Virus record (IMG/VR): IMGVR_UViG_2711768166_000010
Source: a virus
Lineage: Duplodnaviria; Heunggongvirae; Uroviricota; Caudoviricetes
Direction: 5' to 3' (one strand)
DNA length: 4,492 bases
The notes beneath the pieces are model-generated. The model was given only the letters and a program-made list of their open reading frames with translations. It did not search any database and had not been told where the DNA came from. How positions within the stretch are numbered: the stretch's first letter is position 1; each line of letters begins with the position of its first letter. Both the position numbers and the translations under genes were made by a program. Positions 1,704 to 4,492 of this stretch are shown piece by piece.

Positions 1704-2324
1704 ATGGCTTTTACCGACAAAGAAATGATTAAAGAAATCAAAGAACGTATCAGCAGCCTGGACGTACGAGACAATATTGAGCGCCGGGCTTATGAAATAG
1801 CGTTAGCCTCGCTGGAAGCTGAACCGGTGGCATGGCAGGTCACAATCACAAAAGACGGTCAGGACTCAGCCTCTACTATTTACCGTGACTGTGCAGAGAA
1901 AGATACATGGGTTCGGATACATGAGACACTTGGTTCTGTCGTACACGTCACTCCGCTTTACATGGCACCGCCAGCGCCGGTAATACAGGCTGATGTCGCG
2001 CAGGCAATTGAAAATCTCAAGCAGAAGTTAGTGGAATGCAATCGCTATAACTACTGCGCAGATGCAGTTAAAGGCGTAGAGGATGCTTGCCGCGCCACCA
2101 TGCTTCACGGTGTCAAACCTGTAAGCCAGACTTACAAGTTGAACAAGCTGTTTGGCAACTCTCCGGTAACTCCGGATGGTTGGGTTATGGTTCCTAAACA
2201 GGTAACGCCGGAAATCAGCAACGCGATAAACGTTGTGGGTCAACGCTGTACATGCGGAAATTGCTCTCAGCGGTTGTGGGATTTATTACTCGACGCCACA
2301 CAGCAAGGGGTTAACCGTGGCTAA
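1704..2324 (+). CDS. Hypothetical protein (206 aa) with a Cys-rich C-terminal half, possibly metal-binding
   Basis: ATG at 1704 preceded by AAGGA (1691-1695). Long clean frame. Cys clusters C-x5-C-x10-C (ECNRYNYCADAVKGVEDAC) and C-x-C-x2-C (CTCGNC). Stop TAA 2322-2324 overlaps the start of the next gene. Confidence 0.7.
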   Translation: MAFTDKEMIKEIKERISSLDVRDNIERRAYEIALASLEAEPVAWQVTITKDGQDSASTIYRDCAEKDTWVRIHETLGSVVHVTPLYMAPPAPVIQADVAQAIENLKQKLVECNRYNYCADAVKGVEDACRATMLHGVKPVSQTYKLNKLFGNSPVTPDGWVMVPKQVTPEISNAINVVGQRCTCGNCSQRLWDLLLDATQQGVNRG

Positions 2325-2601
2325 CCTGCAACTTGCCGTCAAAGGTGAATACTTCGATGCCATGATTCGCGGAGAGAAAACGGAAGAGTATCGCCTTGTT
2401 AATGACTACTGGAAAAAGCGCCTCGTTAACCGTAAGCATGACCGCCTGATTATCACAAAGGGATATCCGAAGCGCGACGATTCCAGCCGCAGAATTGATG
2501 TTCCGTATGACGGATATGAAGTGAAGACAATCACACATCCGCACTTTGGCGATAAACCGGTAAAGGTATACGCGATAAAGGTGAATATCGACACTGAATA
2601 A
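2317..2601 (+). CDS. ASCH-domain (PUA-like beta-barrel) protein, about 95 aa
   Basis: GTG at 2317 preceded by AAGGGG (2305-2310) and overlapping the upstream stop by 8 nt (GTGGCTAA). Near the N-terminus, GEKTEEYR fits the ASCH signature G-x-K-x-x-E-x-R, preceded by the typical hydrophobic/aromatic lead-in AVKGEYFDAMIRG. Start choice is uncertain: in-frame ATGs at 2233 and 2356 are alternatives. Confidence 0.6.
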   Translation: MANLQLAVKGEYFDAMIRGEKTEEYRLVNDYWKKRLVNRKHDRLIITKGYPKRDDSSRRIDVPYDGYEVKTITHPHFGDKPVKVYAIKVNIDTE

Positions 2602-2603
2602 CA

Positions 2604-2630
2604 ATCCTCGCACTCGCGGGGATTTCTTTT
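2604..2630 (+). terminator. Rho-independent terminator 1 (8-bp GC-rich stem, ACTC loop, T-tract)
   Basis: ATCCTCGC-actc-GCGGGGAT (2604-2623; one G-U, rest Watson-Crick) followed by TTCTTTT (2624-2630), starting 3 nt after the ASCH gene stop. Confidence 0.6.
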
Positions 2631-2634
2631 ATCT

Positions 2635-2660
2635 GAACTCGCTACGGCGAGTTTTGTTTT
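2635..2660 (+). terminator. Rho-independent terminator 2 (7-8 bp stem, TACG loop, T-tract)
   Basis: (g)AACTCGC-tacg-GCGAGTT (2636-2653) followed by TTGTTTT (to 2660). Lies immediately upstream of the RBS GGAGA (2663-2667) of the next gene. Confidence 0.55.
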
Positions 2661-2673
2661 ATGGAGACAAGAA

Positions 2674-3018
2674 ATGTCAGATTTGGCTATGAAGGTTTTG
2701 AAATGGCAATCGACTGGCGATGTTGGCATCAGTAGCGCAACTCTTGCCTCAATCGCATGTGGACTGAAAAAGAATATCTATGGTCATCACTTCGGTGCTC
2801 CACATGACGCAGCCGATTTCCGACGATGCGTTGCGCTTGTCGAGCAGATTCCAGAAATCAGGGATTCATTCGACAAGGTTGCAAAGCGCGTTCCGGCATT
2901 CAAAGGAATCCTCAACGAATGGGATTCCCTCGTTGCTCTGTTGAAGTCTGAAATGAAGATACACGGAAACAAAGCACCAGAGACTTACAGGAGAATCAGC
3001 GAGTTACGAAAGGACTAA
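2674..3018 (+). CDS. Hypothetical protein (114 aa), isolated gene between the terminators and xis
   Basis: ATG at 2674 preceded by GGAGA (2663-2667) at 6-nt spacing. Clean 114-codon frame to TAA 3016-3018. No motif I can assign to a family. Confidence 0.7.
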   Translation: MSDLAMKVLKWQSTGDVGISSATLASIACGLKKNIYGHHFGAPHDAADFRRCVALVEQIPEIRDSFDKVAKRVPAFKGILNEWDSLVALLKSEMKIHGNKAPETYRRISELRKD

Positions 3019-3020
3019 CC

Positions 3021-3053
3021 ACAGTCTCACACTCGATGAGGACTGTTCATTTT
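3021..3053 (+). terminator. Weak terminator-like hairpin downstream of the 114-aa gene
   Basis: ACAGTC (3021-3026) pairs with GACTGT (3041-3046) across a long 14-nt loop, followed by TCATTTTT. The large loop and short stem make this low confidence. Confidence 0.25.
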
Positions 3054-3107: not shown

Positions 3108-3455
3108 GTGGAAGAAGAAATCTTCACTCGTGAAGAGGCAGCGTCGTATCTGAAGGTAGACAAAGGCACTATCACGCAGTGGATACGAAGTGGACGACTT
3201 CAGGCCGCAAAGATAAATCCAGATAAACCTAAAAGCCCATATCGCATTTGCAAGTCAGACTGCATTGCGGCGCTTAAGTCTGTGAGACACAATAGCGCGG
3301 TGAATGCGGTTGATGTGCAGGAGGTTAAAGCATGTCAATCAAACTACGCGGTGGCACGTGGCACTGCGATTTCGTCGCGCCAGATGGATCAAGAGTTAGA
3401 CGCTCTCTTGAAACATCGGACAAGAGGCAAGCGCAAGAACTTCACGATCGTCTGA
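3108..3455 (+). CDS. xis: Excisionase / AlpA-like helix-turn-helix DNA-binding protein (recombination directionality factor)
   Basis: GTG at 3108 preceded by GGAGA (3097-3101) at 6-nt spacing. N-terminal FTREEAASYLKVDKGTITQWIRSGRLQAAKI is a typical excisionase-type HTH. Sits immediately upstream of, and overlaps, the integrase gene. The 115-codon frame runs 124 nt into int, so the true C-terminus is uncertain. Confidence 0.7.
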   Translation: MEEEIFTREEAASYLKVDKGTITQWIRSGRLQAAKINPDKPKSPYRICKSDCIAALKSVRHNSAVNAVDVQEVKACQSNYAVARGTAISSRQMDQELDALLKHRTRGKRKNFTIV

Positions 3456-4492
3456 AAGCAGAAGCGTGGAGAGTAAAAAATCTCGGAGAATCACCGAAAA
3501 AGCTATTCAAGGAAGCCTGCATACGGTGGCTGCGTGAGAAATCGGATAAGAAGTCCATTGATGATGACAAGAGCATTATATCGTTCTGGATGTTGCACTT
3601 CAGAGAAACCATTCTCTCTGACATAACAACAGAAAAAATAATGGAGGCGGTAGACGGGATGGAAAACCGCCGCCATCGCCTGAACTGGGAAATGAGCCGG
3701 GACAGGTGTTTGCGGCTTGGCAAGCCAGTGCCGGAGTATAAACCAAAGCTGGCAAGCAAAGGAACGAAGACGCGGCATCTGGCAATACTTCGCGCTATTC
3801 TCAATATGGCTGTTGAATGGGGATGGATTGACAGGGCACCCAAAATATCAACACCACGCGTTAAGAATGGACGAATCAGATGGCTTACAGAGGAGGAATC
3901 GAAGCGCCTGTTTGCAGAAATTGCTCCTCATTTCTTCCCTGTGGTCATGTTTGCAATCACGACAGGCCTTCGCCGTTCCAACGTTACAGACCTTGAGTGG
4001 TCACAGGTCGATCTGGATAAGAAAATGGCATGGATGCACCCTGATGAAACAAAAGCTGGCAATGCGATCGGAGTTCCTCTTAACGAAACTGCATGCCAGA
4101 TATTAAGAAAACAGCAGGGTCTCCATAAGAGATGGGTATTTGTCCACACCAAACCTGCCTACCGAAGCGACGGAACAAAAACAGCAGCGGTAAGGAAGAT
4201 GAGAACCGACAGCAACAAGGCATGGAAGGGAGCGTTAAAGCGGGCAGGCATTAGCAACTTCCGCTTCCATGACCTGAGGCATACTTGGGCAAGCTGGCTG
4301 GTTCAGTCCGGTGTCTCTCTTCTCGCACTTAAAGAGATGGGAGGATGGGAAACTCTCGAAATGGTTCAAAGATATGCCCACCTTTCAGCCGGGCATCTCA
4401 CCGAGCACGCGAGCAAAATCGATGCGATTATAAGTCGCAATGGCACAAATACGGCACAAGAGGAGAACGTAGTTTACTTAAATGCGAGGTAA
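3332..4492 (+). CDS. int: Tyrosine site-specific integrase (phage integrase family) with N-terminal arm-type DNA-binding domain
   Basis: ATG at 3332 preceded by GGAGG (3320-3324). N-terminus MSIKLRGGTWHCDFVAPDGSRVRRSLETSDKRQAQELHDRLKAEAW matches the arm-binding domain pattern of lambdoid integrases. C-terminal catalytic motifs are present: TGLRRSN (Arg), HDLRHTWASW (His-x-x-Arg) and EMVQRYAHL (Tyr nucleophile). Stop TAA is at 4490-4492, the window end. Confidence 0.95.
   Translation: MSIKLRGGTWHCDFVAPDGSRVRRSLETSDKRQAQELHDRLKAEAWRVKNLGESPKKLFKEACIRWLREKSDKKSIDDDKSIISFWMLHFRETILSDITTEKIMEAVDGMENRRHRLNWEMSRDRCLRLGKPVPEYKPKLASKGTKTRHLAILRAILNMAVEWGWIDRAPKISTPRVKNGRIRWLTEEESKRLFAEIAPHFFPVVMFAITTGLRRSNVTDLEWSQVDLDKKMAWMHPDETKAGNAIGVPLNETACQILRKQQGLHKRWVFVHTKPAYRSDGTKTAAVRKMRTDSNKAWKGALKRAGISNFRFHDLRHTWASWLVQSGVSLLALKEMGGWETLEMVQRYAHLSAGHLTEHASKIDAIISRNGTNTAQEENVVYLNAR

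Follow-up and report, generated by a model that had tools for sequence, protein, structure and literature searches.

What are two stable hairpins, each followed by a T-rich run, doing in the interior of a phage operon, immediately upstream of its last accessory gene and its excisionase and integrase genes? The question is raised by a stretch of 4,492 nucleotides of lambdoid prophage DNA, which we call the window; a prophage of E. coli strain E1 (NZ_CP104503), integrated beside tRNA-Thr near proA, matches it at 100% identity. A first-pass annotation had placed two successive hairpin and T-tract structures at 2604-2660, between an ASCH gene and the gene downstream of it, and had read them as tandem intrinsic terminators. 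Folding, a consensus scan and shuffled sequences agree that both structures are present. Below we ask what the pair would do where it stands, and which other explanations could account for it.

The hairpin pair and its surroundings

All of the genes in the window are on the plus strand, in the order Ead/Ea22-like gene, small ORFs, ASCH-like gene, 114-aa gene, helix-turn-helix (HTH) excisionase-like gene and tyrosine integrase gene. The features in and around the gap that holds the hairpins are the following.

2317 to 2601, plus strand: upstream gene of 94 aa, annotated in RefSeq as ASCH domain-containing; PHROG 625
2603 to 2624, plus strand: hairpin 1, a 9-bp stem (AATCCTCGC / GCGGGGATT) with the loop ACTC; identical to the lambda t3 hairpin
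2625 to 2634, plus strand: T-rich tract 1 (TCTTTTATCT), doubling as the spacer between the two hairpins; the place of mosaic breakpoints and of a cassette insertion in related phages
2635 to 2654, plus strand: hairpin 2, an 8-bp stem (GAACTCGC / GCGAGTTT) with the loop TACG; lambda t4 differs by A2650G
2655 to 2662, plus strand: T-rich tract 2 (TGTTTTAT), from the consensus scan
2663 to 2666, plus strand: GGAG ribosome-binding site, the end of the conserved block, serving whichever gene is downstream
2674 to 3018, plus strand: 114-aa gene of unknown function, PHROG 1229 (ORF and PHROG match)
3108 to 3455, plus strand: excisionase-like helix-turn-helix gene, Pfam HTH_17
3332 to 4492, plus strand: tyrosine integrase gene, Pfam Phage_integrase; tRNA-Thr (thrW) comes next in the source genome

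The TAA stop codon of the ASCH-like gene occupies 2599-2601, one nucleotide before hairpin 1. Both hairpins are contained in the 72-nt gap from 2601 to 2674, between the stop codon and the ribosome-binding site, ahead of the start at 2674 and oriented with all of the genes. A Pfam search with the ASCH-like gene (2317..2601) returned no match at E<=0.01. Gene boundaries elsewhere in the window differ between annotations. The single 206-aa ORF at 1704-2324 is given in RefSeq as a partial pseudogene (1704-1826) followed by a 165-aa gene (1827-2324); the split suggests that a mosaic junction created a chimeric ORF. The xis-like ORF starts with GTG at 3108, and its last 120 nt or so (3332-3455) also belong to the integrase ORF, in another frame; RefSeq starts int at 3338, and mechanical ORF calls may miss the true xis stop or int start.

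The stems are of the kind expected of intrinsic terminators (G+C-rich, roughly 5-14 bp, with a short loop and stable as RNA), at 9 bp with a loop of 4 nt in hairpin 1 and 8 bp with a loop of 4 nt in hairpin 2. Folding of the segment 2595-2665, which had been proposed as a check in the first-pass annotation, found both of them stable: hairpin 1 folds at -13.1 kcal/mol (z = -5.1) and hairpin 2 at -11.9 kcal/mol (z = -4.65), and the whole segment at -25.5 kcal/mol (z = -5.1), a stability reached by none of 200 shuffles. Pair probabilities in the stem cores of both hairpins are 0.99-1.0. Each stem is directly followed by a T-rich run, TCTTTTAT after hairpin 1 and TGTTTTAT after hairpin 2 (in the longer context, TGTTTTATGG), in which T makes up 6 of the first 8 bases, though both runs are interrupted (UCUUUUAU, UGUUUUAU).

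Terminator prediction gave the same picture, with the consensus scan ranking the two hairpins as the top two terminator-like sites on the plus strand of the window and ARNold calling their lambda homologues. When we applied a stricter scan, with minima of 8 pairs, 4 G-C pairs and 5 T in 8 bases, hairpins 1 and 2 were the only sites in the window. Dinucleotide-preserving shuffles (n = 300) contained a mean of 0.27 such sites, with two or more in six of them, and a tandem pair on one strand within 60 nt appeared in 0 of 300. The stability of the folds and these shuffle scans together indicate that the tandem hairpins are real and not a product of chance. No Rfam family reached its threshold, even with permissive E-values; the scores were 20.8 bits for Leu_leader on the minus strand, against a gathering score of 50, and 17.5 for rsmX, against 56.

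Two further hairpins in the window deserve mention in their own right. One, at 3021-3046 between the 114-aa gene and xis, pairs ACAGTC with GACTGT across a 14-nt loop and runs into a T-run, TCATTTTTC, that extends to 3055; with z = -0.67, it was discarded as a strong terminator. The other is a highly stable G+C-rich hairpin at 1240-1259 (TGCCGCCC-GAAA-GGGCGGTA; about -17 kcal/mol with its flanks, z = -2.9), situated in the gap between the ORFs at 1019-1231 and 1294-1482. Because the run that follows it is A-rich and not T-rich, it does not qualify as a canonical terminator, whichever strand is read.

A probable terminator pair within an N-type leftward operon

A terminator inside an operon raises the matter of how the genes beyond it are reached. 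It had been argued from the window that transcription from upstream would need antitermination to reach xis-int, and a search for nut-like sites further upstream had been suggested. In the source locus (L123), that search found a boxA, GCTCTTTAAC, and a boxB-like hairpin, CCCGC-CGAAAT-GCGGG, which together form a nutL-like site between a promoter and an N-like gene. The features listed here are in L123 coordinates.

8107 to 8135: pL-like promoter, TTGACC-17-TAAATT, in the same orientation as the window genes
8330 to 8629: gene for an N-like protein, 99 aa and arginine-rich; PHROG 271 'anti-termination protein N-like', E = 5e-37
16603 to 16654: the hairpin element, on the same strand as the pL-like promoter and the N-like gene

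The promoter, the nutL-like site and the N-like gene are about 8 kb upstream of the element, in the same orientation, and the need for antitermination is therefore a reasonable inference. The N-like gene is followed by cIII, kil and a RecT recombinase gene, and then by the accessory genes of the window; the N-like protein also matches Pfam N_peptide, below the curated cutoff. The element is thus downstream of a pL-like promoter and a nutL-like site in a phage that encodes an N-like protein, and it is this upstream context that leads us to place the terminator pair inside an N-type antiterminated leftward operon. The same operon carries further plus-strand terminator-like sites at 8943 and 9588 of L123, and the hairpin at 9588-9609 is a homologue of the lambda pL-operon hairpin that we take to be tL2a. 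As for promoters closer to the element, the part of the window upstream of it contains one weak sigma-70 site, against 5.5 expected by chance, and none that is convincing as a source of transcripts to be stopped; a search for a CII-box (TTGCN6TTGC) promoter near xis yielded nothing above chance.

How strong might the two terminators be? We scored them with a d-score of the d'Aubenton-Carafa form, computed with modern energy parameters and meaningful only for comparison, and obtained -9.7 for hairpin 1 and -11.6 for hairpin 2. On the same scale, the lambda hairpins that we presume to be tL3, tL2b and tL2a (names assigned to scanned hairpins by coordinates) score -14.7, -15.2 and +22, and the strong terminator in which the repressor gene of L123 ends scores +29. 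The two hairpins are thus near the presumed tL3 and tL2b and far below the presumed tL2a and the repressor-gene terminator. Because their U-tracts are interrupted and their d-scores are below zero, each hairpin may be only partly efficient. The scores suggest that each of the two hairpins probably stops only part of the polymerases, with the effects compounding in series.

Taken together, we consider it likely, with a probability of about 0.78, that the hairpins are two consecutive Rho-independent terminators of moderate individual strength, which a lambdoid prophage carries distally in its leftward early (pL) operon, directly before the last accessory gene and xis-int, and that they are the same element as the predicted lambda terminators t3 and t4. 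This reading joins the computed structure, stability, strand specificity and position of the hairpins to their homology with lambda and to the N-like gene and nutL-like site upstream.

How such a pair would terminate, be read through and insulate we infer as follows. RNA polymerase that the N-like antiterminator had not modified at nutL, whether it came from weak or spurious promoters in the accessory region or had leaked past earlier terminators, would transcribe hairpin 1 and its U-tract, where a fraction of it would be released, and the remainder would reach hairpin 2 about 32 nt later. In a lysogen, the pair would in this way shield the 114-aa gene and xis-int from unscheduled expression. 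Upon induction, N-modified polymerase from pL would read through both terminators. Since hairpin 1 starts one nucleotide after the stop codon, a terminating ribosome could mask it; speculating from transcription-translation coupling, a ribosome finishing the ASCH-like gene could occlude hairpin 1 and leave hairpin 2 as an unoccluded backup. We searched the literature for experimentally mapped 3' ends or read-through at this element, in whatever phage, and found none.

If the pair acts in this manner, the value of recognizing it is mainly one of annotation: the stretch ahead of xis-int is, in this prophage family, fenced off by predicted terminators. This would be relevant to how lysogens avoid stray expression of the excisionase and to the reading of transcriptomes of Stx and other lambdoid prophages.

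Cassette exchange and possible alternative roles of the hairpins

The hairpins are part of a conserved block of about 71 nt that extends from a stop codon (TAA or TGA) to the GGAG. The 91 nt around them are found in 316 phage records at 85-100% identity, among them Stx phages, 933W, HK and mEp phages, P22-like Salmonella phages and lambda derivatives. Of 5,426 complete E. coli genomes, 2,456 (~45%) contain the 71-nt core, some in as many as 6 copies. Because the same block is found in lambda and in nearly half of the complete E. coli genomes, the element is an ordinary one; it is also already known, being a copy of a lambda element that has been predicted as two terminators.

The surroundings of the block are far less constant. 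Across 50 homologous copies in viral contigs, at least 14 unrelated sequence families adjoin it upstream and about 6 downstream, and the BLAST breakpoints are concentrated at four places (the stop codon, the T-rich spacer at ~2625-2637, the hairpin 2 end and the position directly past the GGAG), so that the element coincides with a mosaic joint of gene-cassette exchange. In three viral contigs, an 860-nt cassette is inserted exactly between the T-tract of hairpin 1 and hairpin 2, at the following positions.

L068, 6414 to 7274
L088, 9659 to 10519 (minus strand)
L122, 11646 to 12506

The cassette encodes a 266-aa protein like queuine tRNA-ribosyltransferase (DpdA-type; PHROG 887, E = 1e-102), has a duplicated GGATTTCTTTTAT on its flanks and carries a terminator-like hairpin of its own. 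There are also phages with a single hairpin, either hairpin 1 alone or hairpin 2 alone, and in one viral contig hairpin 1 is joined directly to a homologue of the window's third hairpin, without hairpin 2 and the 114-aa gene. In three other viral contigs (L107, L037 and L020) hairpin 2 is kept and its T-tract is replaced, with GCGAG joined to CTTGAGAGGTTAAAACGATG; because of that replacement, hairpin 2 cannot be an intrinsic terminator in these contigs, and only hairpin 1 has a U-tract. Separately, homology of the window to phages HK97, mEpX2 and HK542 starts at ~2970, and there is therefore another mosaic boundary just upstream of xis.

Could the pair be mainly a relic of such exchange? Each hairpin would then be the 3' end of a separate cassette, the tandem would have arisen where a middle cassette was lost or never gained, and the pairing would have no selected function and would have spread by recombination among lambdoid phages. 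The variety of flanking families, the clustered breakpoints, the cassette with its duplicated GGATTTCTTTTAT and the single-hairpin phages all fit this account, as does the fact that in copies with shared flanks the block is ~93% identical, not above the flanks. On the other hand, the two-hairpin form is by far the commonest, with at least 80% of the block present in 130 of the 316 phage records and in 2,105 genomes, and where the stems do differ among copies, the few changes tend to be to wobble pairs, which leave the RNA helix intact. Such a history would, moreover, be compatible with both hairpins being working terminators. We judge it rather improbable that the pair is mainly a relic, even though the mosaic joint, the cassette and the single-hairpin phages imply that the tandem arrangement may result in part from cassette shuffling. 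A related idea, which we regard as unlikely and put forward tentatively, is that the 71-nt block serves lambdoid and P22-like phages as a favoured joint at which accessory-gene cassettes dock in their leftward accessory region, with GGATTTCTTTTAT in the spacer as a recurrent short-homology crossover point at which the DpdA-type cassette and others have been inserted or lost. If that were true, the tandem terminators would both mark and insulate the site of exchange.

A second alternative is a mainly post-transcriptional role, in which the hairpins, once an endonuclease had cut the long antiterminated pL transcript, would stop 3'-to-5' exonucleases and so give the RNA upstream and downstream of them different half-lives. 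Stable hairpins would indeed persist in the read-through RNA; intercistronic hairpins can stabilise upstream mRNA segments, and lambda int is under post-transcriptional control from a 3' structure, sib. A stabiliser has no need of U-tracts directly after both stems, however, whereas a terminator does, and stems of 8-9 bp are too short for RNase III. No processing data were found for the element. We hold this alternative to be very unlikely next to termination.

Another alternative is that the hairpins act as palindromes in DNA, be it by binding a protein, by forming a cruciform or by terminating transcription in both directions. Both are inverted repeats in DNA, though imperfect ones: hairpin 1 contains a U.G wobble (2608.2619) that is invariant in all copies, and the closing pair of hairpin 2 is G.U. 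The sole frequent stem polymorphism, A2650G in 8 of 20 distinct copies, turns U-A into U.G, and the copy in phage MG40 has an additional stem change from G-C to G.U. At the 2608.2619 wobble, the closing pair of hairpin 2 and the stem polymorphisms alike, pairing is possible only in plus-strand RNA. Because the wobble pairs turn into mismatches, the minus-strand hairpins are weaker (-9.7 and -9.0 kcal/mol), and neither is followed by a T-tract. The scan gave no minus-strand site here, unlike what would be expected of a bidirectional terminator, whose hairpin has an A-tract 5' and a T-tract 3' of it, and there are no converging minus-strand genes. The attachment site is also elsewhere, beyond int, where it adjoins the tRNA-Thr gene. 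These data make a role as RNA, on the coding strand, a better account than either a DNA palindrome or a bidirectional terminator, and we consider a DNA-level role highly improbable.

Covariation in the stems adds little to this comparison: among the 20 distinct copies, which are very alike, no pair has changed on both sides, and 96.8% of the cells are paired. Because the copies are too similar for compensatory covariation, the structure rests on thermodynamics. A scan of viral contigs with a degenerate pattern gave either near-identical homologues or unrelated hairpins.

Finally, the sequence ACTCGC, described in the first-pass annotation as an arm shared by both hairpins, does occur at 2612-2617 and 2637-2642, and GCGAGT at 2647-2652 is complementary to it. 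Only in hairpin 2 is it an arm, namely the 5' arm; in hairpin 1, it comprises the 4-nt loop (ACTC) and the first two bases of the 3' arm. The same annotation had suggested that either copy could pair with GCGAGT to give alternative folds, and such complementarity could in principle make a regulatory switch or attenuator, in which the 3' arm of hairpin 2 pairs with the loop region of hairpin 1 and toggles termination. The energies do not bear this out. An attenuator calls for a competing fold of comparable energy, whereas the helix between 2612-2617 and 2647-2652 has an ensemble probability of ~2e-8 and, when forced, gives -17.2 against -27.1 kcal/mol, or 9.9 kcal/mol worse. Both hairpins are present in every one of the 10,817 suboptimal structures that come within 6 kcal/mol of the optimum, and hairpin 1 is complete before GCGAGT is transcribed. 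The alternative helix would also destroy both terminators at once, which leaves no antiterminator logic, and the hairpin 1 loop varies among copies (ACTC, ATTC, GCTC, TCTC), so that the pairing between ACTCGC and GCGAGT is broken. With no Rfam family at threshold either, the alternative fold is effectively refuted on its computed energetics, and we give a switch almost no chance.

Relation to the predicted lambda terminators t3/t4 and to other terminators

The closest relatives of the hairpin pair are in lambda itself. In the lambda sequence (J02459), homologous hairpins are found at ~29,356-29,335 and ~29,324-29,305 on the leftward strand, between ea8.5 and orf55, the small orf upstream of xis. 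The two were predicted as terminators t3 and t4 by ARNold (Erpin, RNAmotif) (Bloch et al. 2014, PLoS One 9:e108233, Table 4, PMC4195576). Like the pair described here, t3 and t4 are predicted only; the GenBank record J02459 annotates no terminator at the element, and in the literature we found no named classical lambda terminator (tL4 or similar) at 29.3 kb. Identity to lambda-derived records is ~94% over 79 nt, and both hairpins, the spacer and the ribosome-binding site can be aligned. Hairpin 1 is identical and hairpin 2 has one change, U-A to U.G; the layout from stop codon to GGAG, the location one or two genes ahead of xis-int and the strand relative to pL are all shared. In contrast, the flanking genes are unrelated, being ASCH-like and PHROG 1229 here and ea8.5 and orf55 in lambda, and the integrase is of the SfX/thrW type and not the lambda type.

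Predicted terminators inside operons are also a recognised feature of P22-like and lambdoid genomes. Phage MG40 has the same element downstream of its ASCH gene, and its record annotates hairpin 2 as 'terminator'. For the P22-like phage L, in which terminators are predicted inside operons with a single known promoter, partial termination or the stopping of spurious, non-antiterminated transcription has been proposed, and its authors state that the roles of these intra-operon terminators are not known (Zaworski et al. 2020, G3 11:jkaa037). A different multicopy prophage element, the 66-nt sRNA HnrS, was ruled out as the identity of the block: HnrS is located among the late genes, with a promoter of its own.

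The characterised internal terminators of the lambda pL operon that N overrides, the tL2 cluster and tL3, offer a further parallel. They too are hairpins of the intrinsic type with U-tracts inside an N-antiterminated leftward operon, with similar hairpin energies and interrupted U-tracts; their sequences and positions are different. In its arrangement of two intrinsic terminators in series, the element also resembles rrnB T1-T2, and in tandem terminators of that kind, the series arrangement raises overall efficiency. There is, however, no sequence relationship to rrnB T1-T2, and here each member looks only moderately strong and is also found singly in related phages.
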